Shown piece by piece: positions 209-34,939 of a DNA stretch of 64,000 bases. Position 1 is the stretch's first letter. The number at the start of each line of letters is the position of its first letter. A model generated the notes under the pieces. The model saw only the letters and a list, made by a program, of their open reading frames with translations. It was not told where the DNA came from and ran no database searches. Source of the DNA: Chloroflexota bacterium (GTDB lineage Bacteria; Chloroflexota; Limnocylindria; Limnocylindrales; CSP1-4); assembly GCA_042408535.1 (NCBI GenBank), contig JBHORA010000039.1, forward strand, positions 3,419 through 67,418, read 5' to 3'. The translations under genes were made by a program, and so were the position numbers.

Positions 209-557
209 ATGTCAAGCATACGGGAGTTGAGGCCTGAGGGGCAAGGGATGCACCTGCTTCACCGTCGGCCGGGAGCGTCGCTCGGTACAGCAGCAGGGTG
301 GATACCGGAACACGCCGGTCGAAGATCGGGCCCCGGCTGCTTCGCTCGGCCCGGCGCGTGCCAGATGGGTTCGGCCAGATCGAACGGGGAAGGCGACCAG
401 GGGCTGGTCGGGGCGAGAGGGCTAGGGCCTCCTTAACTCAGCAATCTCTCCGCTTCGTGATGATCAACCGCACGCCGAGGGAGTCCGTCCCAGCAGCAGC
501 GGCGCGAAGCGGGTGAAGGCGTAGCCGCTGGGGCGCCGGCCCCCGTCGCGCTGCGGT

Positions 558-8128: not shown

Positions 8129-8605
8129 CTAGGGGCAGGCGGCTGGGGGCGGGGGTGGGCTGCGCACGCCCACGTCAGGACCAGAAGCGATTCTGATCCC
8201 GAGCCAGTAGATCGGCACGGTCGAGATGAGTCGATCTCCGTCACGGAAGACGAGCATCTCCGAGTAGTATCGCCGGTTGCGCCCGTCGCGGCCGCATAGC
8301 TCGAGGACGCGTCCGCCGACGATCCACGAGCCGTCTGGCAAGCTACTCGGGGCGATCACTCTCGTGCCGATGACGGTCGGGCCGGTCCGGGGAACGGCTG
8401 CCGGATCAGCCTCCCGAAGGGTCTGCTGGCATGTCCCGCTGCCGAGCTGGCACAGCGCCGTGAGGTCGCCCGAGGTGACGATGCTGACCACCGTGCGGAG
8501 ATACCCCTCCGCTTCCTCCTCGGAAGGCGGCGGTTGCGGCGTGTATGAGGCGCCGGCGCAGCCGGCTAGGACCAGCGCGAGGACAGCGAAGGCGCGCACT
8601 CGCAT
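8129..8605 (-). CDS. lipoprotein, unknown function
   Basis: MRVRAFAVLALVLAGCAGAS lipobox; 158 aa of normal composition. Confidence 0.7.
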   Translation of the reverse strand: MRVRAFAVLALVLAGCAGASYTPQPPPSEEEAEGYLRTVVSIVTSGDLTALCQLGSGTCQQTLREADPAAVPRTGPTVIGTRVIAPSSLPDGSWIVGGRVLELCGRDGRNRRYYSEMLVFRDGDRLISTVPIYWLGIRIASGPDVGVRSPPPPPAACP

Positions 8606-8610
8606 CGGTG

Positions 8611-8907
8611 CTACTGAGCGAGGAAGCCGGCCGAGAGCGTCCATCTCGGGAGGCCACCATTCGGTACGCTGATGGCTTGCATGTAGTCGATCTCGCGGGT
8701 GTTCGGGTAGGGCTGGCCGAAGGGCCAGATGCACCCGCAACTCCACTCCTCCTTGAAGTGGCCGGCGGCGGTGTACTTGTAGATGTACCAGTGTTCGCAC
8801 ATGAGGCCGGAGGCGCCGATGGTCACTCCGAGGGCCGACACCTGCAGCGGGATGATCGCGCAGGACCCGCTCAGGCTGCCGCGGGGGCTCCAGTCGATCC
8901 AACGCAT
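8611..8907 (-). CDS. Cys/Trp-rich hypothetical protein (frame stays open upstream to about 9040; start uncertain)
   Basis: MRWIDWSPRGSLSGSCAIIPLQ...MCEHWYIYKYTAAGHFKEEWSCGCIWPFGQPYPNTREIDYMQ. Visibly lower GC than the surroundings. Ends 5 nt before the lipoprotein gene. Confidence 0.4.
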   Translation of the reverse strand: MRWIDWSPRGSLSGSCAIIPLQVSALGVTIGASGLMCEHWYIYKYTAAGHFKEEWSCGCIWPFGQPYPNTREIDYMQAISVPNGGLPRWTLSAGFLAQ

Positions 8908-11314: not shown

Positions 11315-11391
<77 letters not shown>

Positions 11392-12192: not shown

Positions 12193-12427
12193 GGCTGACC
12201 TCCTTCGTGCAAGCTGAACGAGCTCGGTTCGTCGAGCTCGGTGGTGGCGTGGCCGGCCGCTGGAGCCGGCAAGCGCGGGCGCCGAACGAACCCCGGCGCC
12301 GACGAAGGATGGCAGGCCGTCGATGAAGGAACGATGAAGACGGAGACCCCGCCGGCTTCGATAACGAAATCTGACCCGCTTCGCAACCGTCAGCCAACCC
12401 GGAGCGCGTACGATCGGCGATCCGGAG

Positions 12428-13216
12428 GTGATCGATATGCGCCTGCTCGTCGCCGAAGACGACCGGCGCCTCGCCGGTCTCCTCCGGCGCGGCCTGGAAG
12501 AAGAGGGCTACGCGGTCGACCTCGTCGGGACGGCGGAGGAGACCCGCTGGCTGGCGACCGAGGTCCCCTACGACACGATCGTCCTCGACGTCATGCTCCC
12601 CGACGGGGACGGCTTCGACGTTTGCCGGGAGCTCCGGGCCGCCGGTCGCTGGGCCCCGGTCCTCTTTCTGACCGCCCGCACGGCCGTCGCCGACCGGGTA
12701 CGCGGTCTCGATGGCGGCGGCGACGACTACCTCGTCAAGCCCTTCGAGTGGGACGAGCTCCTCGCCCGGATCCGGGCCCTCGTTCGCCGTGGAGCACAAC
12801 CGCGGCCGGCGACGATCGAGCTCGGCTCCTTCGTCCTCGACCCGGCGAGCCGGGAGGTTCGGATCGCAGGCAAGCGGATCGACCTCTCCGCCCGGGAGTT
12901 CGCCATCCTCGAGGTCCTCGCCCGCCACCCGAACGAGGTGCTCTCGCGGGCCGACATCCGGGAGGCCGTCTGGGACTGGGCCTTCGAGGGCCGCTCGAAC
13001 GTCATCGACGTCCACGTCGCATCCCTCCGCCGGAAGCTCGGCGGTCGCCCCGGCGCGCCGCGGATCGAAACCGTTCGCGGTGTTGGCTACGCCCTCCGGC
13101 CGCCCGCCGGCGCGCGACCTCGATGGGGTCCTCGAACCGGGGGTGAGGGGAGCGGCGGCCATGACGGAAGCCTCGACCCCTCGGTGACGTCCCGCCATCA
13201 CCCAGGCGGCCGGTGA
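12428..13216 (+). CDS. OmpR/PhoB-family response regulator
   Basis: MRLLVAEDD...DLVGTAEE...VLDVMLPDGDGF...DDYLVKPF, plus winged helix (LSAREFAILEVL...VIDVHVASLRRKL...VRGVGYAL). The stop overlaps the kinase start (GTGA). Confidence 0.9.
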   Translation: MIDMRLLVAEDDRRLAGLLRRGLEEEGYAVDLVGTAEETRWLATEVPYDTIVLDVMLPDGDGFDVCRELRAAGRWAPVLFLTARTAVADRVRGLDGGGDDYLVKPFEWDELLARIRALVRRGAQPRPATIELGSFVLDPASREVRIAGKRIDLSAREFAILEVLARHPNEVLSRADIREAVWDWAFEGRSNVIDVHVASLRRKLGGRPGAPRIETVRGVGYALRPPAGARPRWGPRTGGEGSGGHDGSLDPSVTSRHHPGGR

Positions 13217-14541
13217 GCCTCCGAGCTCGGCTCACCCTCTGGCTGGCGCTCGCCGTCACGAGCCTCGTCGTCGCCGCGGGAGGTCTCGTCTGGGTCTCCA
13301 TCGGCCAGCAGCTCCGACGCTCCCTCGACGAGACCATCCGGCTCCATGCCGAGAGCGTTGCGGCGGCCCTCGAGTCCGACCCGGACGCCCCGATCGACAT
13401 CCTGGCGAGCGGCCGGCCGGCGGTCTTCACCATCCTCTACGGTCGGGACGGAGCCCCGATCCGCCAGACGGCGATGGCGGCCGAGCTGCCAGGGGTGCCA
13501 CCACCGGGCCCGTCCGAGCTCGTCGTCGGCAACGAGCACTACGTCTTCTACGCCATCGATGGCCCGATGGGTCGAATCGTAACCGGGGCGACGACGAGCG
13601 GCATCGAGGAGACGCAGGCTGCGGTGACGCAGGATCTGGTGGCGGTCGGGCTCCTCGTTGCCGTGGTGGCCGTCGCCGGGACCTGGTGGCTCGTCGGCCG
13701 GGTGCTGGCTCCCCTCGCCGCCCTAGCGGCCGAGCTCGAGACGATCGAGCCCGACGAACTCGATCGCCCCTTCGTCGGTCGACCTGGACGGGACGAGGTC
13801 GGCCGCCTCACGCGGTCGATCGCTGGGCTTCTCGCCCGCCTCGACGAGGGGCGCCGCCGCCAGCAGGCCTTCGTGGCTGCCGCCTCCCACGATCTCCGAA
13901 CCCCGCTCGCCGCCCTCCGGACCGAGCTGGAACTCGCCCTCCGAGGCCGACCCGACGGAGCGAGGCTCCGCCAGGCCATCGAAGCCGCCCACGGCGATGC
14001 CGTCCGGCTCGGGCAGCTGGCCGACGGCCTCCTCGCCCTGGCCGAAGCTGAACCGGGAGGCCGGCCCCTGGCCCGAACCCGGGTCAGCCTCGAGGCCCTC
14101 CTCGAGGCGGCCGCCGACGACTGTCGGTCCCTGGCCGAGTCCAAGAAGGCGGCGATCGAGATCGTTGCTTCGGACGATGCGGTCGTCGTCGATCGGGTGC
14201 GCCTCGAGCAGGCGCTCCGGAACATGGTCGCCAACGCGGTCCGGTACTCCCCCGAGGGGGCCCCAGTCCGGATCGTGGCCGACGTAACGACGCGTCGGCT
14301 GCGGCCAGGCTTGCCGGGGCGGCGCTGGCTGCGGGTCGGCGTCGTCGACCGCGGGCCCGGCGTGGATCCGGCGGTCGAGGCCCGTCTCTTCCTCCCCTTC
14401 CCGCGGCGGAACGGTGAGGGTGAGGGAGCCGGGCTCGGTCTGGCGATCGCGGCGGCCGCCGTCCGAGCCCATGGCGGGGAGATCGGCTACCGACCCCTGG
14501 CAGAGGGCGGCTCGGAGTTCTGGTTCGCGGTCCCTTGCTGA
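13213..14541 (+). CDS. sensor histidine kinase (TM-HAMP-HisKA-HATPase)
   Basis: H-box AAASHDLRTPLAALRTELE; N-box LEQALRNMVANAVRYSP; G-boxes VVDRGPGV and GAGLGLAIA. Confidence 0.9.
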   Translation: MSLRARLTLWLALAVTSLVVAAGGLVWVSIGQQLRRSLDETIRLHAESVAAALESDPDAPIDILASGRPAVFTILYGRDGAPIRQTAMAAELPGVPPPGPSELVVGNEHYVFYAIDGPMGRIVTGATTSGIEETQAAVTQDLVAVGLLVAVVAVAGTWWLVGRVLAPLAALAAELETIEPDELDRPFVGRPGRDEVGRLTRSIAGLLARLDEGRRRQQAFVAAASHDLRTPLAALRTELELALRGRPDGARLRQAIEAAHGDAVRLGQLADGLLALAEAEPGGRPLARTRVSLEALLEAAADDCRSLAESKKAAIEIVASDDAVVVDRVRLEQALRNMVANAVRYSPEGAPVRIVADVTTRRLRPGLPGRRWLRVGVVDRGPGVDPAVEARLFLPFPRRNGEGEGAGLGLAIAAAAVRAHGGEIGYRPLAEGGSEFWFAVPC

Positions 14542-14782: not shown

Positions 14783-14811
14783 TTGACCCACCGGCCGGGT
14801 CGGCATACGCT
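14783..14811 (+). promoter_or_regulatory. sigma-70-type promoter candidate (TTGACC - 17 nt - TACGCT)
   Basis: -35 at 14783-14788 and -10 at 14806-14811, placing the TSS a few nt before the riboswitch aptamer. Confidence 0.5.
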
Positions 14812-14819
14812 CGCCCTTC

Positions 14820-14881
14820 GGCGATGGCGTCCGCCGAGACGGTGTCCGTCTGAACCGCCCGCACGGGCTGATGGCTCCTGC
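14820..14881 (+). promoter_or_regulatory. fluoride riboswitch aptamer (crcB motif), copy 1
   Basis: GGCGAUGGCGUCCGCC / AGACGG-UGU-CCGUCU / GAACCGCCC-GCAC-GGGC / UGAUGGCUCCUGC. The blocks match the remembered B. cereus and T. petrophila fluoride aptamers. Confidence 0.8.
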
Positions 14882-14962
14882 ATCATTCTGCCGGGGCGTG
14901 ACGCTCCCGAAGAGGCGTCCCGAGGGCGCGTCGCGAACCCCGTCCCGAGAACGGAGGCTAGC

Positions 14963-15970
14963 GTGAGCGAGGCGAGACGGACGGCGTCGGCGGGCGACGA
15001 GGCGAGCCTGCCGGCCACGGCGGGCGGACGCTTCTGGTCGCGCCTGCAGGCGGCCGTCGGCCGAGCCATCGTCGGCGGAGGTGAGGCGCTCCGCTTCCTG
15101 ACGATCGCCCTTCTGGCCGAAGGCCATGCCCTCATCGAGGACGTCCCCGGGACCGGCAAGACGACCCTCGCCCGGGCCTTCGCCCGAGCCCTTGGCCTCT
15201 CCTTCGCCCGGGTCCAGGGCACCCCCGATCTCCTGCCCGGCGACGTGACTGGGAGCAGCGTCTTCGAGGCCGGTCGCTTCCGCTTCGTGCCGGGGCCGAT
15301 CTTCGCCAACGTCCTCCTCGTCGACGAGATCAACAGGGCGACGCCTCGGACCCAGTCGGCGCTCCTCGAGGCGATGCAGGAGCGCCAGGTTTCCATCGAC
15401 GGGACGACCCACCGTCTCCCGACCCCCTTCCTCGTCCTGGCGACCGAGAACCCGATCGAGCTCGAAGGAACGTTCGCGCTGCCAGAGGCCCAGCTCGACC
15501 GCTTTCTCGTCCGGACGAGGCTCGGCTACCCCGACGAGGTCGAGGAACGCCGGATCGCCGCCCTCTACCGCGACGGTCGGCTCCCGATCGAGGACGTGCC
15601 CCAGATCACGAGCTCGGATGAGCTCGGATCGCTCATTGCCGCCGCCGCCCGCGTCACGGTAGCCGAGGACGTCGAGCACTACATCGTCGCCCTCGTCCGA
15701 GCTACCCGCGACCACCCCGACGTCCGGCTCGGGGCGAGCCCGCGGGCGAGCGTCGCCCTCTACCGGGCAAGCCAGGCGGCCGCCCTCCTCGCAGGGCGCG
15801 ACTTTGCCCTCCCCGACGACGTCGCGGCGGTCGCGCCGGCTGTCCTCGTCCACCGAATCCTCGTCGACGTCGATCGGGAACTCCGGGGAGCGAGCGCCGA
15901 GCAGATCATCGCTGACGTCCTCGACCGAACGCCGGCGCCGCCGATCGGCCTTGCTCGCTCCGGGCACTGA
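14963..15970 (+). CDS. moxR: MoxR-family AAA+ ATPase
   Basis: GGAGG 5 nt before GTG 14963; EDVPGTGKTTLARAFARAL, LLVDEINRATPRTQSALLEAMQE, ATENPIELEGTFALPEAQLDRF. Confidence 0.9.
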   Translation: MSEARRTASAGDEASLPATAGGRFWSRLQAAVGRAIVGGGEALRFLTIALLAEGHALIEDVPGTGKTTLARAFARALGLSFARVQGTPDLLPGDVTGSSVFEAGRFRFVPGPIFANVLLVDEINRATPRTQSALLEAMQERQVSIDGTTHRLPTPFLVLATENPIELEGTFALPEAQLDRFLVRTRLGYPDEVEERRIAALYRDGRLPIEDVPQITSSDELGSLIAAAARVTVAEDVEHYIVALVRATRDHPDVRLGASPRASVALYRASQAAALLAGRDFALPDDVAAVAPAVLVHRILVDVDRELRGASAEQIIADVLDRTPAPPIGLARSGH

Positions 15971-15989
15971 AGCGGGAGGTTGACCAACG

Positions 15990-17243
15990 ATGCCTCGTGG
16001 GGTGCTCGTCCCGGGTCCCTCCGGCCTCGTCGTCGCCGTTCTCGTCGGCCTCGGGCTCTGGAGCGGCGCGACGGGCCTCGTCTTCGTCGGTCTCATCGTC
16101 GGCCTCACGACCTGGCTCCGGACCGTCTGGTCCAGGCGCGGCCCGGTGGCCCTCCTCTACCGCCGCGAGCTCGCCTCCGAGCGGGCCGTCTGGGGCGATC
16201 GGGTCCCCCTCACCCTCGTCGTCGAGAACCGGAAGATCCTTCCCCTCGCCTGGCTCCGCACCGACGACTTCGTTGGCGACGAGCTCGTCCTCGATGGGAT
16301 CGCCACGGTGCCCACGGAGCGACCCGGGATCGCCAGCCTCCGAATGACCTGGTCCCTGGCGCCGTACGAGGAAGTCCGGCGGCAGCTGGCCATCGTCGCC
16401 GAGCGTCGGGGGCGGTTCCGGTTCGAGTCCGTCGCGCTGACCGTCGCTGACCTCTTCGGCCGGTCGGCGACGACCGTTGAGCGCCTACTCCCGGCGACGC
16501 TCGTCGTCCGGCCGCGGACGGTCCCGGTTCGGCTCGGCGGCCCGGCCGTCCTCCCCCTTGGCCCGCGCCGGCTCCGGCGCGGGCTCGTCGAGGACCCCGC
16601 CCTCTTCGCCGGCATCCGGCCCTTCCAGCGCGGGGATCCGCGGCGCCGCGTCCACGAGCGGGCGACGGCCCGGCTCGGTCGACCGGTGAGCAAGCGCTTC
16701 GAGCCGTCGGCGGCCCGCGACGTGGTCATCGCCCTCGACGCCCAAACGGTGCCGGGACCGGTCTGGCTCCTCCAGTGGGATGACGACCTCGTCGAAAGCC
16801 TCGCCGTGGCGGCAGGATCGCTCGCCCGCCGGCTCCTCGACGATGGTGCCGCTTGTGGCCTGGCCGTGAACGCCTGGACGTACCAGCCTGACCGGATCGG
16901 GTTCGTCCCGCCGAGGGCGGGCCCTGGCCAGCTCGCCCGGATCCTCGATCTCCTCGGCCGGCTGACGACCGTTCCCTCGATGCCGTACCCTCGGCTCCTC
17001 GGGGCCATCGGCCGGCGGATCAGCGCCGGGTCCCTTGTCATGACCCTGAGCAGTCGTGATCCGAGCGACGCCCTCCCCGTCCTCCGGCGTCTCCGATCCA
17101 GCGGCTTCGAGATCCTCCACATCGCCCTCGGCCCGGAGGCGACGGCGCACGCGGCCCTGGTTCGCCGGTTCGGCCTGCCGGCCCGCGTTGCCCGTCTCGC
17201 CCCCGACTGGCGGACCTGCCATGCCATCGAGTTGGCGAGCTAA
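15990..17243 (+). CDS. DUF58 domain protein (vWA-like partner of MoxR)
   Basis: Two N-terminal TM helices, then ...FAGIRPFQRGDPRRRVHERATARLGRPVSKRFEPS...VIALD, typical of DUF58. Confidence 0.85.
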   Translation: MPRGVLVPGPSGLVVAVLVGLGLWSGATGLVFVGLIVGLTTWLRTVWSRRGPVALLYRRELASERAVWGDRVPLTLVVENRKILPLAWLRTDDFVGDELVLDGIATVPTERPGIASLRMTWSLAPYEEVRRQLAIVAERRGRFRFESVALTVADLFGRSATTVERLLPATLVVRPRTVPVRLGGPAVLPLGPRRLRRGLVEDPALFAGIRPFQRGDPRRRVHERATARLGRPVSKRFEPSAARDVVIALDAQTVPGPVWLLQWDDDLVESLAVAAGSLARRLLDDGAACGLAVNAWTYQPDRIGFVPPRAGPGQLARILDLLGRLTTVPSMPYPRLLGAIGRRISAGSLVMTLSSRDPSDALPVLRRLRSSGFEILHIALGPEATAHAALVRRFGLPARVARLAPDWRTCHAIELAS

Positions 17244-18609
17244 GCTCGGCTGGCGACTCCTCGGGCTCCTCCCGGCCGCTGCCGCAGCGACCGCGGAAGG
17301 GGCGTGGGTCGCTGTCTGGTACGCCGCGCTCGGTGCCGCCGATCGCCCGGCGCGGCCGCTTGGCCTCATCACCTTCGTGGGGGCGGCAGCGGCCGGTCTC
17401 GTCCTCGCCCGGAGGCTCGAGGGCAGGGGGCGGCTGGACCGACGTGCAGAACGGGTCGTTCGCCGGCTCATGCTCGGTGCGGCCATCGGTGGCGCGGCAG
17501 CGCTCGGTCTCGCCCTCGAGGGCCCCGTCGGGAGCGGTGACGTTGCCGACTGGATCGGTGGGCTCGCCGCCGGCGCCCGCCGGGGCGAGGTCGGCGGCCT
17601 TCTCCTCGGCGTCGCCGCGTGGCGGGGGACGCGCCACGCCGCTCCGGAGCGGGACGACCTCGTGACGGCCGGCCTCCTCGGCTGGGGAGCGCCGCTCCTC
17701 GGCATCCCGTGGCTCGTCGGGGGCCTCCGGCCCGGGCCCGCCTTCGTGGCGAACGCTCTCGTCGCGACCCTCGTCTTCGTGGCGGCGAGCCTCGTCGCCA
17801 TCGGCCTGACCCGTCTGGAGGCCCTCGCCCAATCGGCCGGCCTCGACTGGCGGCGGAACCGAGCCTGGCTCGTCCTCCTCGTCGCGGTCGTCGCGTCGGC
17901 GAGCCTCCTCGCCCTCCCGGCGGCGGTCCTCCTCGGGGCATCCGTCGACGCCCTCCTGGCCGGCCTCGCCGGTCCGGTGGCTGTCAGCGTCGAGGTCGCC
18001 GAACGGGCCGTCGGGCTCCTCGGGAGGAGCGTCGGCTCGACGCTCGGGACAGCCATGCCTGGTTCGCCCGGCGAGGTCGGCGGCACCTCGGGGGTCGGCG
18101 ACCTCGTGCCGAACCTGTCGATCCCGGGCGTCCTCGCCGGCCTCGCGGCGGTCCTCTTCGCCATCGTTGTCCTCGTCGCCGCCCACCGTTTCTGGAGCCG
18201 GGTCCGCGGCGGTCGGCCGTCGCCGACGCCACCGCTGCCGATCGTCGAGGAACGGCACGTCCGGCCCCCGCGACCGAGGGTCCGTCTCGCTCTCCCGAGG
18301 CTCGCCCTCCGCCTGCCGCGTTTCCGCGGCGGGCCACGCACAGCGACGGAGGCGTACCTCGACCTGGCGGCCAGGCTCGGGCCGGAAGGAGAGCTCGCCC
18401 GCCGCCTCGGCGAGTCGCCGTCCGGACACGCCCGCCGTCTCCGGAAGCGACATCTCGGCTCCGTCCGCCTCGACCTCCTCGCCGCCGACGTCGCCCTCGA
18501 GCGGTTCGCCGGCCGCGGTCTGCCGCGACGGGAGGTGGCGCGGGCCATCGACAGGGCACGGGACCCGCGGCTCGCTGGCGATGGGCGGTCGGGAGGAAGC
18601 CGTGGCTGA
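17221..18609 (+). CDS. polytopic membrane protein with DUF4129-like C-terminus
   Basis: ATG 17221 overlaps the DUF58 end by 23 nt. Multiple TM helices; C-terminus TEAYLDLAARLG...ESPSGHARRL...ERFAGRGL. Confidence 0.7.
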   Translation: MPSSWRAKLGWRLLGLLPAAAAATAEGAWVAVWYAALGAADRPARPLGLITFVGAAAAGLVLARRLEGRGRLDRRAERVVRRLMLGAAIGGAAALGLALEGPVGSGDVADWIGGLAAGARRGEVGGLLLGVAAWRGTRHAAPERDDLVTAGLLGWGAPLLGIPWLVGGLRPGPAFVANALVATLVFVAASLVAIGLTRLEALAQSAGLDWRRNRAWLVLLVAVVASASLLALPAAVLLGASVDALLAGLAGPVAVSVEVAERAVGLLGRSVGSTLGTAMPGSPGEVGGTSGVGDLVPNLSIPGVLAGLAAVLFAIVVLVAAHRFWSRVRGGRPSPTPPLPIVEERHVRPPRPRVRLALPRLALRLPRFRGGPRTATEAYLDLAARLGPEGELARRLGESPSGHARRLRKRHLGSVRLDLLAADVALERFAGRGLPRREVARAIDRARDPRLAGDGRSGGSRG

Positions 18610-18649
18610 CCGGTCGTTCGACACGGGCGGCGCGGACGAGGGGACGACC

Positions 18650-19909
18650 ATGCGCAGCGTCGAGGTTGGGCCGGGATCGAAGGCGACGGCCGGGCCGGTT
18701 CCGCCGAACGGCGCCGCCTCCGGGTGGCTGACCCCCGGCGTCCGAGGCATCGGGGCGGCCAGTCTCCTCTCCGACCTCGGTCACGAGGTCCCGACAACGC
18801 TCCTGCCGGCCTTTCTCTCGTCCGCCCTCGGTGCGCCGCCGGCCGCCCTCGGCCTCATCGAGGGGCTGGCCGACGGGCTCTCGGGCCTGGCCAAGATCGC
18901 AGGTGGGCCGTTTGCTGACGAACCCGAGCGACGTCGGTCGATCGCCGTCGGCGGCTACACCCTGGTCGCGGTCCTGTCGGCGGCGATCGGGCTCGCCACC
19001 GCCGTCTGGCAGGTGGCGATCCTGCGAACCGGTGCCTGGGTCTCGCGTGGCTTTCGGACCCCGGCCCGGAACGCCCTCCTCGCCGACGCCGTCGACCGTC
19101 GGGTGTACGGCCGGGCCTACGGCTTCGAGCGGGCGATGGACAACCTCGGAGCGGTGCTCGGTCCACTCGCGGCGCTCGCCCTCGTGAGCCTCCTCGACGT
19201 CCGAAGGGCGATCCTCGTCTCGGTCGTCCCGGGCCTCCTCGCCAGCCTCGCCATCCTGTACGCCATCCGCCACATCCGTGCAGCGCCCCCCGGAGCGACG
19301 GCCCGTCCCCGACGCCGAGGTTTCGATCTCCCCGTCCGCTCCCTTCTTCGGGGTCGCCTCCGCCGCGCCTTCGTCGTCGTGGGGGCCTTCGAAGTCGGCA
19401 ACGTGGCGGCGACGCTCCTCATCCTTCGAGCCACGGAGGTCTTCACGGCGGCAGGCCGAGCCGACGCGGCACAGCTCGCCGTCGCCCTCTACGTCGCTTA
19501 CAACCTGGCTGGGACGCTGGCGAGCATTCCCTTCGGGCGACTCGGCGACGCTCGCGGCTTCACAGCGCCGCTCCTCGCCGGATTCGCCCTCTTCGCTGGG
19601 GCCTACGGTGCCTTCGCCCTCGGGCCGGCCGACCCGCTCCTCCTGGGTGCCGCCTTCGTGGCCGCTGGGGTCGGCATCGGCATCGTCGAAACGGGTGAGC
19701 ATGCCATCGTCGCTTCCGCTGCCCCGCCGGAGGCGCGAGGCTCGGCCTTCGGGCTCCTGGCCGGCGCCCAGAGCTTCGGCGATTTTGCCGCCAGCGGGAT
19801 CGTCGGCATCCTCTGGAGCCTCGGCGGAGGGACGATCGCCTTCGCCTATGCCGCCGCCTGGATGGTGATCGCCTTCCTTCTCGCCGCGCTCGTCCGGCCG
19901 GGCCGCTGA
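18650..19909 (+). CDS. MFS transporter
   Basis: GIGAASLLSDLGHEVPTTLLPAFL..., roughly 12 hydrophobic segments, with the GRLGDARG loop motif. Confidence 0.85.
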   Translation: MRSVEVGPGSKATAGPVPPNGAASGWLTPGVRGIGAASLLSDLGHEVPTTLLPAFLSSALGAPPAALGLIEGLADGLSGLAKIAGGPFADEPERRRSIAVGGYTLVAVLSAAIGLATAVWQVAILRTGAWVSRGFRTPARNALLADAVDRRVYGRAYGFERAMDNLGAVLGPLAALALVSLLDVRRAILVSVVPGLLASLAILYAIRHIRAAPPGATARPRRRGFDLPVRSLLRGRLRRAFVVVGAFEVGNVAATLLILRATEVFTAAGRADAAQLAVALYVAYNLAGTLASIPFGRLGDARGFTAPLLAGFALFAGAYGAFALGPADPLLLGAAFVAAGVGIGIVETGEHAIVASAAPPEARGSAFGLLAGAQSFGDFAASGIVGILWSLGGGTIAFAYAAAWMVIAFLLAALVRPGR

Positions 19910-19966: not shown

Positions 19967-19995
19967 TTGACCGGCGTCGCCGTGGCGCCTATCCT
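19967..19995 (+). promoter_or_regulatory. sigma-70-type promoter candidate (TTGACC - 17 nt - TATCCT)
   Basis: -35 at 19967-19972 and -10 at 19990-19995, which is 7 nt before the second aptamer. Same architecture as at 14783. Confidence 0.5.
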
Positions 19996-20002
19996 TTTTG
20001 CC

Positions 20003-20068
20003 GGCGATGGTGTCCGCCGAGACGGGACGCTCCGTCTGAACCGCCCGATCGGGCTAATGGCCCCTGAC
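20003..20068 (+). promoter_or_regulatory. fluoride riboswitch aptamer (crcB motif), copy 2
   Basis: GGCGAUGGUGUCCGCC / AGACGG-GACGCU-CCGUCU / GAACCGCCC-GAUC-GGGC / UAAUGGCCCCUGAC. A competing hairpin at 20059-20088 sequesters the 3' pseudoknot strand. Confidence 0.8.
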
Positions 20069-20122
20069 CGATGGTTCGGTCTGGGGCCGTTCGATTCCCC
20101 CGGCCAGACGGAGGTGTCTCGC

Positions 20123-21412
20123 GTGGACAACCTGTATGTCGTCGCTGCACTCTGGATCGGCATCGCCCTTGTCGCTAGCCTCGTCTCGATCCGGCTCGGC
20201 GTCTCGGTCGCGCTCGTCGAGATCGCCCTTGGGGTCGCCGCCGGGAACGCCATCGGGCTGACGACGACGCCGTGGGTGGACGTTCTGGCCGGCTTCGGCT
20301 CGGTCATCCTGACCTTCCTCGCCGGGGCCGAGATCGACCCAGGAGCGCTCCGCCGACACCTGAAGGCGAGCCTCGCCATCGGGGCGGTCTCCTTTGCCGC
20401 CCCCTTTGTCGCCGCCTGGGCCGTCGCCTCCTCCGTCTTCTGCTGGGACCTGGCGGCCAGCCAGATCGCCGGCGTCGCCCTGTCGACGACCTCGGTCGCC
20501 GTCGTCTATGCGGTCATGATCGAGTCTGGTTTGGCGAGCGAAGAGCTCGGGAAGCTCATCCTGGCGGCCTGCTTCGTCACCGACCTCGGCACGGTCCTCG
20601 CCCTCGGGATCCTGTTCGCCGACGTCAGTCCCCTCCTGCTCCTCTTCGGGGCGGCGACGGCGGGCGTCCTCCCCGTCGTCGGGCGGGCGACGCGCTGGTT
20701 CGTCGAGCGCTTCCCGAACCGTGTCTCGGAGCCAGAGACGAAGTTCCTCCTCCTCGTCCTCTTCGGCCTCGGCGGGCTCGCCGCAGCCGCCAGGAGCGAG
20801 GCCGTCCTGCCGGCCTATCTCCTCGGACTCGCCGTGGCCGGCGCCCTGGCCGAGGCCCGGGTCCTCGTCCACCGGATCCGGGCGATCGCCTTCAGCCTCC
20901 TCACTCCCTTTTACTTCATCAGGGCGGGTCTGTATGTCTCGCTGCCGGCCGTCGTGGCAGGAGCCGGACTCGTTGCCGCCTTCTTCGTGATCAAGGTTGG
21001 GTCGAAGGTCGTGGGCGTCTGGCCGACGACGCGGGCCTTCGGGCTCCCCGCCCGGGAGTCGACGTACGCGACGCTCCTCATGTCGACGGGGCTCACCTTC
21101 GGGACGATCTCGTCCCTCTTCGGCCTCAGCCACGGCTACATCGACCAGGCCCAGTACACGGTCCTGGTGACCGTCGTCATCCTGTCGGCCGTGGCGCCGA
21201 CTCTCGTGGCGACGACCTTCTTTAGCCCGGTCCTCGCCGGCGAGGCCGAGCTCGAGGAGTTCGATGCGGCCGAGGAGATCGACGCTGGCCTCCTGCCGCG
21301 GCCGGGATCGGCCGAGGAGATCGGCGCGGCGGCGGCCTCCAGGAGGGCTGGCTCGGGCCGCCAGCTGGCGAACGATGAGCGCGTCGCAGTCGGCGAGGCG
21401 GAATCCGCCTAG
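20123..21412 (+). CDS. cation:proton antiporter (Na+/H+ exchanger family, CPA type)
   Basis: GGAGG before GTG 20123; LTFLAGAEID, ALSTTSVAVVYAVM, about 11-12 TM helices and an acidic C-terminal tail. Confidence 0.85.
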   Translation: MDNLYVVAALWIGIALVASLVSIRLGVSVALVEIALGVAAGNAIGLTTTPWVDVLAGFGSVILTFLAGAEIDPGALRRHLKASLAIGAVSFAAPFVAAWAVASSVFCWDLAASQIAGVALSTTSVAVVYAVMIESGLASEELGKLILAACFVTDLGTVLALGILFADVSPLLLLFGAATAGVLPVVGRATRWFVERFPNRVSEPETKFLLLVLFGLGGLAAAARSEAVLPAYLLGLAVAGALAEARVLVHRIRAIAFSLLTPFYFIRAGLYVSLPAVVAGAGLVAAFFVIKVGSKVVGVWPTTRAFGLPARESTYATLLMSTGLTFGTISSLFGLSHGYIDQAQYTVLVTVVILSAVAPTLVATTFFSPVLAGEAELEEFDAAEEIDAGLLPRPGSAEEIGAAAASRRAGSGRQLANDERVAVGEAESA

Positions 21413-21449
21413 AGGCGCCGGCACCAGGGCGCCTGGCGACGTCACGCCG

Positions 21450-23081
21450 ATGGCCCCCGAGCCGGGCGGCGCCCGGACGGATGAGGCCAGCCAGGGGGGA
21501 CCCCGGGGCATCGACGTCGGCTGCGTCGTCTGCCGCTTCGTGGCCGAGGCGGTCGAGCGCCGGATCTTCTTCCTCTTCGCCGAGGCGGTCGGTGAGTCGT
21601 GGTTCGTCGCCAAGATGCGGGCTGGTGGGTTCTGCACGGCCCACGTCCGGCACCTCGTCTCGGCCGGCCGCGGTCCGCGGCTGACGGGCCCCTTCGAAGA
21701 CGTCCTCAATGGCTGGCTCGCCCGGCGGCGAGACGCCGGCGGGACGGCTCTGCCCTCGGTCGGCGAGGCTTGCCCGATCTGCGAGACCGCGACCTGGGCG
21801 ACGAACCACGCCCTCGGGCTCCTCGCCTCCGGCGACGCGCGGCGGATCGAGGTCGGCCTCGGCCGATCCGGCCCGCTCTGTCTCATCCACCTCGATCGGC
21901 TCATCGACTGGATGCCCTGGCAAGACCAGGTTGCGGTCGCCCGGCGCTGGGCGGAGCGGCTCCTGGAGGCCGTCTGGCTGGCGAGCGAGGTGGATGCCGC
22001 GGCCCCGGACGCCGCTGCTCATCGCCTCGCTGCGGATCGCCCCGCCGCGGCCCCGGACGCCGCCGCCGATCGCCTCGCCGCCGATCGCCTCGCCGCCGCC
22101 GTCGCTGTCCTCGCCGGCCCCTCTCCGATGGTTCGGCAGCCGGAGGTGAGCCCGGTCGCTCAAGTGCGCCCAGGGCGGACCGTCTCCACTCCGGAGGGAC
22201 GCCGATCGGGCGCCGCGGCTGGCTGGCACGACGGACTCCTCACCGAGGCCGGCCTGCTTGCCGAGCTCGCGGCGGGGCGCTGCCCGGTTTGTACCGCCGG
22301 TATCGCCGCCCAACAGCGACTCCTCACCTGGCTCGCCGAGCCCGCCCCGACGCGCGACCACCGCGACCTCGATGCCCTCTGTGGCGACCACCTCCGCCAG
22401 CTCGCCCGGCTCGCCCCGGCGAGTGCCGCCTCGGCGACCCGCAGCGCCCTCGAGCGCCGCCTGGCGATGCTCGCGGCGCTGCCGACCGTCGCCGACCGGC
22501 CACCGCTCCAGCTCGCCGAGCGGGTCCGCTGGGCATGGCGGCGGGCTCGGGCGCGCGGGCCGAACGAGCGGGGCGGTTCGCTCAGCATCGGGGTCCGGGC
22601 CGTCTGGCGCGCCCTTCGCTCCCCCCGCGACTTCGTCGCCGAGCCGCTCCGCCGAGCTCGCGTCGCCGCCGATCGGGAGTGCGTCGCCTGCCGCGCCGCG
22701 ATCACCGCCCGTCGTCGCTCGCTCGCCCTCCTCGGGGCGACCCTCCGGAGCCGAGGCGGGCGCGACCGATTCGAACGGAGCGGTGGCCTCTGCCTCCGGC
22801 ACACCGCCGCTGCCGCGGTCGCCGGGCCGGCCCTCGGGCCGGTCGGTCTCGCCCTCGTCGGGGCGGTCGCTGAGGGCCGAGTCGTTGGCGTCCGTTTCGA
22901 GCTCGAGGAGGCGCTGCGGAAGTCGAGCTGGTCGGTCCGGTACGAACCGGTCGGACCCGAGGTCACAGCCTGGCGGCGGGCGATCCTCTTGGTCCTCGGC
23001 AACGCCGCGCTTCCCGATGTCGACGACTCGCTTGCCGTCGCGGCGGCCGACGAGACCGACCGCCCGCGACGGGCCGTCTGA
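21450..23081 (+). CDS. Cys-rich protein with four CxxC...C-x2-H modules (internally duplicated)
   Basis: CVVCR..(33)..GFCTAHVRHL; CPICE....GPLCLIHLDRL; CPVCT....ALCGDHLRQL; CVACR....GGLCLRHTAA. An Ala/Asp repeat linker joins the two halves. The C-terminal ELEEALRKSSWSVRYEP..EVTAWRRAI recalls DUF6062-type proteins (from memory). Confidence 0.7.
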   Translation: MAPEPGGARTDEASQGGPRGIDVGCVVCRFVAEAVERRIFFLFAEAVGESWFVAKMRAGGFCTAHVRHLVSAGRGPRLTGPFEDVLNGWLARRRDAGGTALPSVGEACPICETATWATNHALGLLASGDARRIEVGLGRSGPLCLIHLDRLIDWMPWQDQVAVARRWAERLLEAVWLASEVDAAAPDAAAHRLAADRPAAAPDAAADRLAADRLAAAVAVLAGPSPMVRQPEVSPVAQVRPGRTVSTPEGRRSGAAAGWHDGLLTEAGLLAELAAGRCPVCTAGIAAQQRLLTWLAEPAPTRDHRDLDALCGDHLRQLARLAPASAASATRSALERRLAMLAALPTVADRPPLQLAERVRWAWRRARARGPNERGGSLSIGVRAVWRALRSPRDFVAEPLRRARVAADRECVACRAAITARRRSLALLGATLRSRGGRDRFERSGGLCLRHTAAAAVAGPALGPVGLALVGAVAEGRVVGVRFELEEALRKSSWSVRYEPVGPEVTAWRRAILLVLGNAALPDVDDSLAVAAADETDRPRRAV

Positions 23082-23091
23082 GGAGACTGAC

Positions 23092-24525
23092 GTGGTCGAG
23101 AGGGCCGGGATGCCCGGGATGGAGATCGGACCGAGCGCTGCCTTCGTCGACCCGGCGATGGAGTCCGGGCCGCCCTCCGAGGGACGGCTCGTCCTCGTCG
23201 AGGTCGAGCGGGCGACGGGCCCAGGGCCCGCCGTCGAGTTCGACGATCGCGGTCGGCCGCTCGTCCGCAGCTTCCGGGCCGAGGGGATCTGGCTGGGGTT
23301 CGACCACGGCTCGGTCCCCGAGACCGACGACGGTCGTGGCCGCACCCTTGCCGCCCTCGTCGCCCTCCCGGGCTCCACGTTCCCGGGCTGCCGGATCGCG
23401 GCCAGGCTCACCGGCGCCCTCGTGTCGGGGGACCGCGTCGTCCTGCTCGCTGCCCTGCCTGGCTGGCCGCCGCCCGCCATCGGCCTGGCCCGGGCGGCCG
23501 CGGCCCTCGGCGACGCGGCGCACCTCGAGGCCGAAGCGGCCGCCGACCTCCTCCGTCGGGCCCGCCTCCGGTACCGCGAGCGGGTCCGGGCCGGTCGCCC
23601 GACCGGAGGCCGGGCCTGGGCGGCGATCGGCCGGCTGCCGCCGGAGCTGGCCCGCTTCGCCACGCCCCACTCGCCGGCCGAGTACCGACTCGCCCAGCTT
23701 CCGCCGCGACTCGTCCGCGGCCTCGAGGGGATCCTCGACGACGACGAGCGGATCCTCGCCTGGGTCCGCCGCCCGGCGATCCTCGAGGGCGGACTCCGCG
23801 AGACCCTTCGGCGGGCGGGTCGCCGCGTCGATCGTCGCGAGGCGGTCCTCGTCCTCACCGATCGCCAGCTCGTCTGGGTCGTCGACCACGCCGAGCCCGG
23901 GCGCTACCTCGTCGAGTGGGGCGTCGACCTCGAGCTCGTGCCCCTCGAGCGGTTGATCCAAGTTCGGGCTGCCACGACCGCGGACGTCATCCGGCTCACC
24001 GTCGAGACCGACGCCGGGGGATCGGCGAGGAGCCGGTCCTACGAGCTCCCGGCCGAAGCTACCGCCGAGACCGAGGTCGTCGTCGCCCTCCTCGAGCGGT
24101 TCACGCCGGAGGCCGCCGATGGCCGCCCGGTCCGTCGCTACGAGCTCGGGGCGCGCCAGCCGGCGCTCGAAGAGGCGGACCGGTTCCACCAGCGGGAGGT
24201 CGCGGTCGCCTTCCTCGAGCGAGCGGGGGAGCTCGGGGAGGTCCTCGGCTTCCTCTTCAGCCCCCGTCGGCCGGGGACGCGCGAACCCTCGGCCCTCGCC
24301 GTCTTCGAGTGGGGCGCCGCGCTCCTCACGCCGGACGCGGTCGTTCGGACGTCGGCGACCGACCTCGCGGCCCTTGGCCTCACCCTCTCGCCGCTCGTGG
24401 GCCGCCTCTCGCTCGTGCCGGGACCGACGTTGACGTACCCGGCACCGTTCTCGACGACGGGTACCGCCGTCGTCCGGCTCCTCCGACGGGCGGCGGCGAA
24501 CGCGCGCCCGGGCCCTTCCCGCTGA
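23092..24525 (+). CDS. two-domain protein: degenerate inorganic-pyrophosphatase-like N-terminus plus bacterial PH-like C-terminal region
   Basis: AGGAG 7 nt before GTG 23092. LVLVEVERATGPGPAVEFDDRGRPLVRSF...FDHGSVPETDDGRGRT..PGCRIAARLTGAL follows the family I PPase pattern with acidic residues replaced. ERILAWVRRP...AVLVLTDRQLVWVVD is PH-like. Confidence 0.65.
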   Translation: MVERAGMPGMEIGPSAAFVDPAMESGPPSEGRLVLVEVERATGPGPAVEFDDRGRPLVRSFRAEGIWLGFDHGSVPETDDGRGRTLAALVALPGSTFPGCRIAARLTGALVSGDRVVLLAALPGWPPPAIGLARAAAALGDAAHLEAEAAADLLRRARLRYRERVRAGRPTGGRAWAAIGRLPPELARFATPHSPAEYRLAQLPPRLVRGLEGILDDDERILAWVRRPAILEGGLRETLRRAGRRVDRREAVLVLTDRQLVWVVDHAEPGRYLVEWGVDLELVPLERLIQVRAATTADVIRLTVETDAGGSARSRSYELPAEATAETEVVVALLERFTPEAADGRPVRRYELGARQPALEEADRFHQREVAVAFLERAGELGEVLGFLFSPRRPGTREPSALAVFEWGAALLTPDAVVRTSATDLAALGLTLSPLVGRLSLVPGPTLTYPAPFSTTGTAVVRLLRRAAANARPGPSR

Positions 24526-29462: not shown

Positions 29463-29476
29463 GCTAGGATCCGTGC

Positions 29477-30457
29477 ATGCGCGCCAGTCGCCTCGTGGCG
29501 CTCCTCCTCCACCTCCAGAACCGCGGCCGGATGACGGCCGGGGAGCTCGCCGCGGCCCTCGAGGTGTCGCCGCGCACGATCTACCGCGACCTCGAGGCCC
29601 TGAGCGCGGCCGGCATCCCGATCTGGGCGGAACGCGGGCCGGGTGGCGGGATCCAGCTCGTCGAGGGGTATCGCACCCGGCTGACGGGGCTCACGGCGGA
29701 CGAAGCCGCAGCGGTCATGCTCGCTGGCCTGCCGGGACCGGCAGCCGAGCTCGGGCTCGGGACCGTCCTCGCGGCGGCCGAGCTCAAGGTTCTCGCCGCG
29801 CTGCCGCCCGAGCTCCGCGGGCGAGCAGCGCGCATGCGAGCCCGCTTCCACCTCGACGCGCCGGGCTGGTTCCGGGCCGCCGATGCCGTGCCGCACCTGG
29901 CCGGGCTCGCCGAGGCGACGTGGAACGACGAACGCCTCCGCATCCGGTACCGGCGCGACGACGAGGTCGTCGAGCGGACGGTGGAGCCGCTGGGCCTCGT
30001 CCTCAAAGCCGGGTCCTGGTACCTCGTCGCCCGGCGCGACGGGGTGTACCGCACGTACCGGGTGTCGAGGATCGTCGGTGTCGAGTCGACCGGCGAGCGC
30101 TTCGAGCGACCGTCCGACTTCGACCTGGCCACGTACTGGGCGCGGTCGACGGCCAGCCTCGAGGCGGGCCCGGAGGGCAGGCCGCCGTACCCGGTGACCC
30201 TCCGACTGACCGCTGGCGGTGCGGCCGCGCTCGTGGCGATCCTCGGGGAGGCGCGAGCGCGCGTCGCCCTGGACAGCGCCGGGTCCGCCGACGAGGCGGG
30301 CTGGCGAACCGTCGTCGTGGATCTCGAGAGCCCCGGTTGGGCGCACGAGGTCGCGGTCCGTCTGGCCGATCGAGCCGAGGTGCTCGCTCCCTCCGACCTG
30401 AGATTGCGGGTGGTCGAGACGGCTCGGGCGTTCGCCGCTCGGTACGCCGGGGGCTGA
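29477..30457 (+). CDS. WYL-domain transcriptional regulator (HTH-WYL-WCX, YafY-like)
   Basis: MRASRLVALLLHLQNRGRMTAGELAAALEVSPRTIYRDLEALSAAGIPI..; WYL core SWYLVARRDGVYRTYRVSRI. Confidence 0.85.
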   Translation: MRASRLVALLLHLQNRGRMTAGELAAALEVSPRTIYRDLEALSAAGIPIWAERGPGGGIQLVEGYRTRLTGLTADEAAAVMLAGLPGPAAELGLGTVLAAAELKVLAALPPELRGRAARMRARFHLDAPGWFRAADAVPHLAGLAEATWNDERLRIRYRRDDEVVERTVEPLGLVLKAGSWYLVARRDGVYRTYRVSRIVGVESTGERFERPSDFDLATYWARSTASLEAGPEGRPPYPVTLRLTAGGAAALVAILGEARARVALDSAGSADEAGWRTVVVDLESPGWAHEVAVRLADRAEVLAPSDLRLRVVETARAFAARYAGG

Positions 30458-33909: not shown

Positions 33910-34917
33910 TTACCCCTCGCCGTAGCGGGCCAGGGCGGCCTGGAGGGTCCGGGCGACGTCGGCCCGCAGCGCGGGCGGGGCGAGGACCTCGACGTCGGCT
34001 CCCCAGCCGAGGATCCAGAGCTTGATCTCGTGGGTCCCGGCCACCCGCGCCCGCCAGAGGAGCGAGCCGTCGGCGCCCTCTTCGACGACCTGGGTCGGAT
34101 GCCAGGTCGCCTCCTGGACCCGCGCCGCGACCATCGGCGAGAAGCGAAGGACGACCTCCACCTCGGGCTGGTCGCCGATGATGTCCCAGGCCCGCAGGAG
34201 CGTCCGCTGGAGGGCGTCGGCGTTCGGTGGCTCGAAGGTCTCCGGGCTGACCGAGAGCGCTTCGATCCGCTCCACCTTGAAGGTCCGGAGGGCGCCGCGG
34301 TCCTCGTCGTGGCCGATGAGGTAGAGGGCATGGGTCTGGAGCGAAGGCTCGAGGAGGTAGGGCCGGACCCGAGCCTCCCGTGGCTCTCGCTCGGCACCCT
34401 CGTAGCGGGCCGGGACGTAGCGGAAGGTGACCTTCCGTCGCTCCGCCCAGGCCCGGACGAGGTCGTGAACGTGGCGGTTGAAGCGTGGATCCGTTCGGCG
34501 GCTGGCGAGGACGGTGAGCGTCCGCTCGACATGTTCGCGAAGGGGGATCGGGAGGACCTCCTCGAGCTTCTGGAAGGCAGCCGCGAGCTCCGGGTCGTAC
34601 TTGTCGGCGTAGCGGGCCATGAGCCGCGCCGAGAGGACGACGGCCATCGCCTCGCCGAGGGTCAGATTCAGGGGCGGCAGGAAAGTCTCACCCTCGACGC
34701 CCCAGCGACCCTGCTCGTTCCAGACGGCGGCCCCGATCTCGGTCTCGAGAGCCCGAAGGTCGCGGTAGGCCGTCCGCCGAGAGACGCCGACCCGGCGGGC
34801 GATCTCGTCGATGGCGACGCCCCGCTCGCCGTGGGAGCGGAGGACCGAGAGGACGCGGTAGAAGCGGGCCAGGCGATCGCGTTTCCCGTTCGAGCCTCGG
34901 CCGTCGCCGTCGATCAT
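33910..34917 (-). CDS. WYL-domain transcriptional regulator
   Basis: GGAGGAG before the ATG (rc 34915-34917). RLARFYRVLSVLRSHGERGVAIDEIARRVGVSRRTAYRDLRALE; WYL core ALYLIGHDEDRGALRTFKVERI; C-terminal WCX-like. Confidence 0.85.
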   Translation of the reverse strand: MIDGDGRGSNGKRDRLARFYRVLSVLRSHGERGVAIDEIARRVGVSRRTAYRDLRALETEIGAAVWNEQGRWGVEGETFLPPLNLTLGEAMAVVLSARLMARYADKYDPELAAAFQKLEEVLPIPLREHVERTLTVLASRRTDPRFNRHVHDLVRAWAERRKVTFRYVPARYEGAEREPREARVRPYLLEPSLQTHALYLIGHDEDRGALRTFKVERIEALSVSPETFEPPNADALQRTLLRAWDIIGDQPEVEVVLRFSPMVAARVQEATWHPTQVVEEGADGSLLWRARVAGTHEIKLWILGWGADVEVLAPPALRADVARTLQAALARYGEG

Positions 34918-34939
34918 CGCTCCTCCGGGCTTGCCGTTC

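Follow-up and report, generated by a model that had tools for sequence, protein, structure and literature searches.

Paired candidate fluoride riboswitches and a MoxR-DUF58-DUF4129 gene module in a Chloroflexota genome

The known defences against fluoride comprise export (by Fluc or CLC-F), the homeostasis of pH and ions, and an increased production of sensitive enzymes, enolase and pyrophosphatase among them. What, then, could a fluoride-sensing RNA be doing in front of a gene for a MoxR-type AAA+ ATPase? The question is raised by a 64-kb stretch of contig JBHORA010000039.1 of a Chloroflexota bacterium (assembly GCA_042408535.1), which in its entirety is referred to below as the window (G+C content 71.8%). 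The RNA in question is a candidate member of the fluoride riboswitch class (Rfam RF01734), reportedly the crcB motif of Baker and colleagues (2012), with a structure said to have been described by Ren and colleagues in the same year. An initial annotation, made by a model that read the sequence alone without database searches, had proposed a fluoride-class aptamer at 14820-14881 with its own promoter, followed by a MoxR-DUF58-DUF4129-MFS operon, and had suggested an undescribed fluoride-response machinery.

The comparative analysis described here favors, with a probability of about 0.75, a reading in which the window carries two fluoride ON riboswitches and a split fluoride operon, and in which the MoxR triad takes part in the fluoride response. 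Riboswitch 1 would control moxR, a DUF58-like gene, a DUF4129-type membrane protein gene and an MFS transporter gene, and riboswitch 2 would control genes of a CPA2 antiporter, a Cys-rich DUF6062-like protein and a protein with a pyrophosphatase fold. The two operons would represent a split and rearranged copy of one ancestral-type fluoride operon, with a riboswitch on each half. In the relatives sampled (mostly labelled Limnocylindria or Limnocylindrales) this operon is conserved as a single unit that also includes crcB and DUF190/CBS genes, and it is this conserved linkage that argues for counting MoxR, the DUF58 adaptor and the DUF4129 protein among the components of the fluoride response. 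The machinery under riboswitch control is a novel variant of the fluoride-resistance operon, the biochemical role of which we infer below from better-known MoxR systems.

Aptamers, promoters and expression platforms

The Rfam cmscan analysis of all 64 kb returned three matches at or above the gathering score (34 bits for RF01734), one of them a tRNA (11318-11391, minus strand) and the other two RF01734 aptamers on the plus strand. Aptamer 1 (14811-14887, core 14820-14881) covers the full length of the model (positions 1-64) and is the top-scoring RF01734 match in the window (51.1 bits, E-value 3.2e-11), in agreement with the class and the core sequence given in the initial annotation. Aptamer 2 (19994-20073; 41.3 bits, also full length) begins 85 nt beyond position 19909, the end of the region considered in that annotation, in which this second riboswitch operon of the same system had been overlooked. 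The respective scores obtained with R1, our own covariance model built from eight aptamers, are 87 and 82.6 bits.

Both window aptamers match the RF01734 model over its full length, with P1 and P2 intact, most of the pseudoknot formed, and the stretches GAUG and CUGAUG (or CUAAUG) of the consensus preserved. In aptamer 1 the helices are GGCG/CGCC (P1) and GCCC/GGGC (P2), and, unlike in the known class, the linker between them forms an additional hairpin (AGACG/CGUCU). A second difference concerns the pseudoknot of six pairs between the P1 loop and the 3' tail, where five of the six pairs form in both aptamers: GGCGUC (14826-14831) faces GGCUCC (14873-14878) with a central C.U mismatch in aptamer 1, and GGUGUC (20009-20014) faces GGCCCC (20059-20064) with a central U.C mismatch in aptamer 2. 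If pairs are numbered as in PMC11077080, the mismatched one is pair four of the pseudoknot. This pair is non-standard (C.U, U.C or U.U) in 10 of the 15 related aptamers with letters at this position, always together with the extra linker hairpin, and the other pseudoknot positions covary among relatives (from G-C to A-U).

The alignment of 16 related aptamers to R1, which is model-fitted and hence leans towards the structure, contains standard pairs in 95.9% of cells and eight pairs in which both partners have changed. These values were not reached in any of 500 shuffles, and slid controls were only 30-51% paired. P1 is invariant and 100% paired, P2 is 98% paired with double changes in two pairs, and the linker hairpin covaries, with four of its five pairs changed on both sides. 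The combination of linker hairpin and mismatched pseudoknot appears to mark a lineage-specific aptamer subtype, which precedes MoxR, antiporter and H genes (H being the pyrophosphatase-fold protein) in the window's relatives. The same subtype heads the crcB-containing operon of locus L170 (see below), which argues that the ligand is still fluoride. As the strength of the pseudoknot tunes switching, and G+C-rich pseudoknots can lock the switch in the ON state (PMC11077080), it is plausible that the weakened pseudoknot in a genome of 72% G+C reflects such tuning. Overall, the RNA is best described as a further member of the known RF01734 class, predicted to bind fluoride, with the mismatched pseudoknot pair as a caveat to this assignment.

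Promoter 1 (14783-14811, plus strand), with a -35 box TTGACC (14783-14788), a 17-nt spacer and a -10 box TACGCT (14806-14811), has exactly the coordinates proposed initially; a generic promoter scan does not flag it because TACGCT agrees with TATAAT at only three of six positions. Promoter 2 (19967-19995, plus strand), TTGACC and TATCCT separated by 17 nt, was detected by the scan (one site versus 0.1 expected), and its hexamers are identical in L082b. Since the layout TTGAC, 17-18 nt, TAnnnT recurs 8-10 nt before P1 in orthologous leaders (L082, L084, L001, L161, L162, L165 and L170), both promoters were accepted as likely sigma-70-like.

The two riboswitches seem to differ in their mode of action. 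The pseudoknot 3' strand of aptamer 2 doubles, as is typical of the class, as the 5' arm of a terminator hairpin, GGCCCCUGACCG...CGGUCUGGGGCC (20059-20088), followed by GUUCGAUU (entire element 20059-20096, plus strand; RNAfold z-score -5.8). Matching hairpins with compensatory changes and U-rich tails are found in L082b, L001, L165 and L170. This arrangement identifies riboswitch 2 as a predicted transcriptional ON switch of the classical terminator/antiterminator type, placed, like others of its class, before ion-transport genes. Riboswitch 1, unlike known members, has no terminator and the first gene it would regulate encodes a MoxR AAA+ ATPase. Its leader and putative expression platform (14882-14962, plus strand) contain a Shine-Dalgarno sequence GGAGG (14953-14957), of which GGAG (14953-14956) is paired in the RNAfold minimum free energy structure to CUCC (14875-14878) with a probability of about 1.0; an equivalent anti-Shine-Dalgarno pairing, there also covering the start codon, is predicted in L084. 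We propose, with low certainty, that riboswitch 1 probably acts at the level of translation. Without fluoride, the CUCC of the pseudoknot 3' strand would hold the Shine-Dalgarno GGAG of moxR, and with fluoride the pseudoknot would be locked and the ribosome-binding site of moxR freed. Rho-dependent termination may be an alternative mechanism.

A terminator-like hairpin, GGCGTCGCCGTGGCGCC followed by TATCCTTTTT, is located at 19973-19999, within the spacer and the -10 box of promoter 2, and could serve as the end of the MoxR-MFS transcript.

The MoxR triad and fluoride genes in related genomes

A survey of homologous MoxR operons for the same leader, as suggested in the initial annotation, covered 160 loci (80 collected via MoxR and 80 via the DUF58 alignment) and a further 12 found by exact-protein look-ups; all 172 were searched with Rfam and R1. 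In the species-representative genome collection the nearest MoxR loci are L001, from a metagenome-assembled genome of Candidatus Limnocylindrales (73% identity), and L002, from one labelled Chloroflexia (67%), all others being at or below 58%. The source names of close DUF58 homologs are likewise Limnocylindria, Limnocylindrales or Chloroflexota. A hand-written regular expression for the aptamer was dropped in favor of the Rfam and R1 scans, as it missed L154 and L144, the pseudoknots of which covary. Weak R1 matches in L036, L140 and L156, lacking Rfam confirmation at E-value ≤ 0.1, were discarded.

An RF01734 aptamer at or above the gathering score lies directly 5' of the MoxR-DUF58-DUF4129 genes in L081/L082, L084, L154, L171, L172 and L144. 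The L081/L082 locus (46.9 bits), with a MoxR 86% identical to that of the window, has a window-like layout including a second aptamer before the antiporter gene, and L084 (44.5 bits) has a MoxR 74% identical. In L082 and L084 the spacer between aptamer and start codon has wholly diverged, with the aptamer and the promoter kept. L154 (48.8 bits), its relatives L171 and L172 (43.1 and 45.9 bits; also Chloroflexota) and L144 (35.5 bits) have canonical aptamers with fully paired pseudoknots. Textbook terminators, with the pseudoknot 3' strand as the 5' arm, follow the aptamers of L154 and L144, and in L154, L144 and L172 either a canonical terminator is present or DUF6062/DUF190/CBS genes lie downstream.

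In a neighbor-joining tree of DUF58 proteins the window, L081, L082, L084, L083, L165, L001, L092, L086, L088 and L002 form one subclade, and L154 and L144 are basal to the whole ortholog clade; the fluoride-linked loci make up this subclade together with the two basal branches. The L092 contig, in which an MFS gene stands directly before moxR, ends before any riboswitch could appear. The juxtaposition of aptamer and MoxR is seen in three branches of the tree, two of them Chloroflexota and the third a single unassigned contig (L144).

The most complete form of the operon is found in L170 (GCA_049325375.1), where nine genes, coding for the antiporter, CrcB, DUF190/CBS, DUF6062, MoxR, DUF58, DUF4129, a homolog of gene G (the DUF6062-like gene of the window) and H, follow a single riboswitch at the 5' end (38.0 bits). 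L165 and L001, also with a riboswitch at the 5' end, have the order antiporter, DUF190/CBS, MFS or NUDIX, MoxR, DUF58, D (the DUF4129-type membrane protein) and H. In L167 and L168 overlapping genes encode MoxR, DUF58, D, CrcB and DUF190, and L169 has the order CrcB, DUF6062, MoxR, DUF58 and D, in all three without a riboswitch. In L002 the triad is convergent with a riboswitch-crcB-DUF190 unit, and a canonical aptamer is present on the crcB unit only. Within the window, neither tblastn nor Pfam detects a crcB or CLC gene, as had been noted in the initial annotation. The absence is a local accident of the arrangement in this genome, relatives carrying crcB in the operon. Taken from gene order and leader sequences, these data argue that the triad is a general module, and that at least two Chloroflexota lineages, as well as the L144 branch, have made it a firm part of their fluoride regulon.

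Some details of these loci are worth recording. The D and crcB genes overlap through TTGA in L167 (11205-12913), and in L168 (11205-12914) they share one reading frame with a 569-residue product, weak evidence by itself, which could reflect a true D-CrcB fusion or else an indel in the assembly. Genes of phosphate metabolism (polyphosphate kinase, CYTH-CHAD, Ppx-GppA, Pst transporter, PhoU, LMWPc, His_Phos_1) adjoin the fluoride/MoxR operons in L167/L168 (2820-8900 and 14185-19980), L170 (18800-21233) and L001 (9488-10696). In L084 an enolase gene (about 3-500, minus strand) is divergent from the riboswitch-MoxR operon, which itself includes a calcineurin-like phosphoesterase gene between D and H. 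The L166 locus (8464-8842) looks like a decaying copy of the operon: behind an aptamer that scores 55 bits with R1, but less than the gathering score in Rfam, only 60 residues of the antiporter are left before MoxR-DUF58-D, H is frameshifted, and the surroundings consist of insertion sequence (IS) elements and PIN toxin genes.

Variant fluoride-like aptamers were seen on the minus strand of L161 (14546-14608), L162 (14618-14680), L164 (9420-9486) and L165 (2333-2396). All four have P1 CGCG/CGCG, P2 CCCG/CGGG and a perfect pseudoknot GAAGCU/GGCUUC, and are followed by terminators and by a MutS_V gene pair, an MFS gene or an open reading frame of 70 residues; their R1 scores are 17-24 bits, below the Rfam gathering score. 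One more aptamer-like element, in L164 (6041-6113, minus strand) before a HEAT_2 gene, combines a canonical P1 (GGCG/CGCC) with a diverged P2 (R1 32 bits, also below the Rfam gathering score).

Proteins of the two operons and their proposed role

Gene calls were made from the frame plot of G+C at third codon positions (GC3), inspection of start codons and Pfam matches. All genes of both operons are on the plus strand, and those of operon 1 are as tightly packed as claimed in the initial annotation, with distances of +19, -23 and -8 nt from moxR through the DUF58-like gene and D to the MFS gene. The first, moxR (14963-15970, GTG start), encodes a standard MRP-type AAA+ ATPase of 335 residues, matching AAA_3 (196.8 bits, 1.5e-58) and AAA_lid_2 (71.6 bits, 4.6e-20) above the Pfam cut-offs; the closest solved structure is PDB 2r44 (1.1e-63), and RavA is matched at 6e-11.

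The labels of the two following genes come by way of their orthologs. The DUF58-like protein (15990-17243, 417 residues) scores 17.9 bits against Pfam DUF58 (PF01882), below the cut-off of 23.4, and its orthologs in L165, L154 and L144 score 25.4, 46.7 and 46.8 bits; many homologs at 46-63% identity have a precomputed PF01882 match and DUF58 names. A PDB sequence search with this protein gave no match. In its AlphaFold model (pLDDT 85.7) there are two transmembrane helices at the N-terminus, a beta-sandwich of the Ig-like type and, at the C-terminus, an alpha/beta domain. At the position corresponding to the metal ion-dependent adhesion site (MIDAS) the protein has D250-A-Q-T-V, the D, Q and T of which hardly vary within the clade. 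Gene D (17221-18609, 462 residues), delimited by frame plot and start choice, encodes a polytopic membrane protein with at least five hydrophobic segments by hydropathy and has no Pfam match even at E-value ≤ 10. A C-terminal DUF4129 domain (PF13559, cut-off 24.8) is detected in its orthologs from L001 (28.0 bits) and L154 (33.2 bits), the scores in L165 (24.7), L082 (18.9) and L144 fall below the cut-off, and the orthologs in L170, L171 and L172 have precomputed DUF4129 matches. With identities of 65% to D of L082 and 45% to D of L001, orthology supports the predicted DUF4129 label for the window protein.

The last gene of operon 1 (18602-19909, GTG start overlapping the D stop codon) encodes an MFS transporter of 435 residues (MFS_1, 100.6 bits, 1.1e-28) with only generic MFS and efflux matches in NCBIfam; an MFS gene is found directly 5' of MoxR in L165 and L092. 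Immediately upstream of promoter 1 are genes for an OmpR-type response regulator and a HAMP/HisKA histidine kinase (12365-14541, plus strand), the latter also being upstream in L081 and L082 (64% identity).

Operon 2 opens with a CPA2-type cation/proton antiporter of 429 residues (20123-21412, GTG start, Shine-Dalgarno GGAGG at 20110), assigned from Pfam and NCBIfam; Na_H_Exchanger is matched above cut-off (121.6 bits, 4.7e-35), whereas the match to TIGR00932 (3.2e-27) does not reach the cut-off of that model. Both pyrophosphatase and Na+/H+ antiporter genes rank among the most frequent of the established fluoride-riboswitch gene classes, the antiporter being the second most common (PMC11139923), and in starting with an antiporter operon 2 resembles the riboswitch-run fluoride operons (crcB/Fluc, CLC-F, antiporter, pyrophosphatase, DUF190, CBS); the antiporter operon is of an ordinary fluoride operon type. 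What sets the window apart from the known fluoride operons is the lack of an exporter gene and the addition of MoxR-DUF58-DUF4129, the Cys-rich DUF6062-like protein and H. The second gene, G (21375-23081, start at 21375 or 21450), encodes the Cys-rich protein, with four CxxC motifs and a DUF6062 match of 1.4e-4 that is below the cut-off; G homologs or DUF6062 genes are present in L170, L169 and L172.

Gene H (23092-24525) encodes a soluble protein of 477 residues with no family match in Pfam (E-value ≤ 10) or NCBIfam and only weak sequence matches otherwise, and its homologs fall into just 71 clusters, none of them named. Its AlphaFold model (pLDDT 86, pTM 0.79) was decisive for the fold: all of the top 50 Foldseek matches in PDB are family I inorganic pyrophosphatases (E-values 2e-7 to 4e-5, probability 1.00, target-normalised TM-score about 0.5-0.56), matched by the N-terminal domain. 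Unlike these enzymes, H has no Pfam match and no catalytic DxDPxD signature (this stretch is D-[ST]-D-D-G-x-G-R, in which other residues occupy the aligned Asp positions), and extends about 300 residues further at the C-terminus; hhalign against a single E. coli pyrophosphatase sequence gave a probability of 0.07. H follows D in L083, L084, L086, L001 and L165, and the stand-alone H genes of L161-L164 have fluoride aptamers of their own. Downstream of operon 2 are convergent genes for malate synthase and isocitrate lyase.

What the triad might do under fluoride can be approached from related modules. MoxR/VWA systems remodel or load metal-dependent enzymes (PMC13036017, PMC9976466, PMC5437159). 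As in RavA-ViaA, NorQ-NorD, CbbQ-CbbO and MRP MoxR-DUF58 pairs, a DUF58 gene stands in the window immediately behind that of an AAA_3 ATPase, and the partners associate with the membrane; unlike in those systems, the MIDAS DxSxS of the DUF58 partner is replaced by D-A-Q-T-V, and an Ig-like domain is present in addition. The gene order (ATPase, DUF58, membrane protein with a C-terminal DUF4129-type domain) is also that of the bifidobacterial PFNA cluster (aaa-atp, duf58, tgm). Unlike in PFNA-type triads, a transglutaminase core is not detectable in the third protein of the window, and the module is embedded in fluoride operons.

By analogy with NorQD, CbbQO and RavA-ViaA, the most likely role of the triad is one in remodelling or as a chaperone. 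MoxR, DUF58 and DUF4129 proteins would form a membrane-bound AAA+ complex, which under fluoride stress would keep in order, assemble or rescue clients encoded alongside it, such as the Fluc channel, the transporters or the pyrophosphatase-fold protein. A more specific proposal, which we consider possible but rather doubtful, is that the triad together with the DUF6062-like protein and H would constitute a so far unrecognised, ATP-driven machine for the control of fluoride damage, built as an AAA+ remodeller anchored in the membrane. It might strip Mg-fluoride or Mg-fluoride-phosphate from poisoned phosphoryl-transfer proteins (compare the action of CbbQO on inhibited Rubisco), or assemble or gate Fluc and the antiporter, with H as a client or an anion-binding adaptor.

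The MoxR class does not appear in the descriptions of fluoride regulons in PMC11139923, PMC7266159 and PMC2864571, and neither MoxR nor DUF58 occurs in the first 200 of the 438 supplementary files of Weinberg et al. 2010. Conversely, fluoride-riboswitch control or co-transcription with crcB is not mentioned for MoxR/VWA systems in the papers retrieved. A full-text literature search returned no paper linking MoxR, DUF58 or DUF4129 to fluoride riboswitches; the gene list of Baker et al. 2012 was outside this search, and a prior passing mention is possible. If the proposed role is correct, the induction of an AAA+ MoxR module by fluoride would give the fluoride response an active layer of repair or assembly that depends on ATP, and the large, poorly understood MoxR-DUF58-DUF4129 family would gain an easy inducing condition (NaF) and candidate clients. 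The long-standing question of MRP-type MoxR function would then become directly testable. Of further interest at the locus are a natural aptamer subtype, found in a genome of 72% G+C, whose mismatched pseudoknot bears on the tuning of switching by pseudoknot strength, and a new family of pyrophosphatase-fold proteins with a fluoride riboswitch of its own in several genomes.

Alternative explanations and neighboring genes

Several observations weigh against the favored reading, and the most general of them concern the distribution of the triad. About 20 more distant orthologous triads have neither an aptamer nor a fluoride gene nearby (in 0.4-7 kb of upstream sequence), and therefore the triad is not fluoride-specific everywhere; the initial suggestion of an undescribed fluoride-response machinery is limited to this extent, and retains the support of the aptamer-MoxR and crcB linkage in relatives. 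L167-L169 are also without an aptamer, and all occurrences with a known taxon lie within Chloroflexota. The distant triads, and the wide occurrence of MoxR-DUF58-transglutaminase/DUF4129 triads in many phyla (e.g. the bifidobacterial PFNA cluster; PMC8430577, PMC6803598), speak for a generic system of membrane-protein quality control with no task specific to fluoride, which in some Chloroflexota would be transcribed as a passenger together with the genuine fluoride genes (antiporter, MFS, crcB). We consider this unlikely. The aptamer stands directly before moxR, with the triad as the first and main cargo, in L084, L154, L171, L172 and L144; where the ancestral operon has been divided, as in the window and in L082, the part with MoxR either retained or acquired a riboswitch; and D and crcB overlap or share a frame in L167 and L168. 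Equally, the partner proteins fit the MoxR/VWA model imperfectly, as the DUF58-like protein has no canonical MIDAS motif (DxSxS...T...D) and the vWA fold of its C-terminal half is not confirmed, because Ig-like domains dominate the Foldseek list of the model. A MoxR-vWA type of conflict or defence system with no role in ion stress, to which a match of MoxR to Pfam bpMoxR (35.8 bits) might point, was nevertheless rejected and has in our view a negligible chance of being correct: PADLOC finds no system and no meaningful match at the locus (only a partial 22.7-bit MoxR match), there is no beta-propeller or effector gene, and the neighbors are ion transporters and fluoride genes.

Other unfavorable points lie in the RNA itself. 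Every aptamer of the window's subtype has the mismatched central pseudoknot pair, and the copies in L161, L162 and L166 are below the Rfam gathering score, as might be expected of a subtype that had come to sense a ligand other than fluoride. Such a change of specificity is very unlikely, given the intact consensus stretches and helices, the presence of the same subtype at the head of operons with crcB, DUF190 and Na+/H+ antiporter genes (all hallmarks of fluoride operons), and the canonical, fully paired aptamers of the MoxR operons in L154, L171, L172 and L144. As to function, no recognisable terminator with a U-tract or strong alternative structure follows aptamer 1, the proposed anti-Shine-Dalgarno pairing is just 4 bp long and is not predicted in L082a, and the fold of leader 1 as a whole is no better than that of shuffled sequences (z = -0.73). 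This would suit a non-functional remnant of a duplication in front of a constitutively expressed moxR, a possibility that we hold to be slight indeed, as aptamer 1 has the highest RF01734 score in the window and both the intact aptamer and its promoter are conserved in L082 and L084 despite the full divergence of the spacer. Two functional fluoride riboswitches, one on each half of a split operon, are thus the reading that we prefer.

Two features elsewhere in the window may be mentioned. An open reading frame at 40924-42048 (plus strand), some 20 kb from the fluoride locus and with no aptamer near it, matches SAM_HAT_N (4e-45) and SAM_HAT_C (1.6e-10); we take it to encode a member of the S-adenosylmethionine (SAM) hydroxide adenosyltransferase/DUF62 family, whose superfamily presumably also holds fluorinase and chlorinase. 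Genes for helix-turn-helix regulators with WYL/WCX domains (29468-30457, plus strand, and 33910-35169, minus strand) flank those of an HD-domain protein and an AMMECR1 protein.

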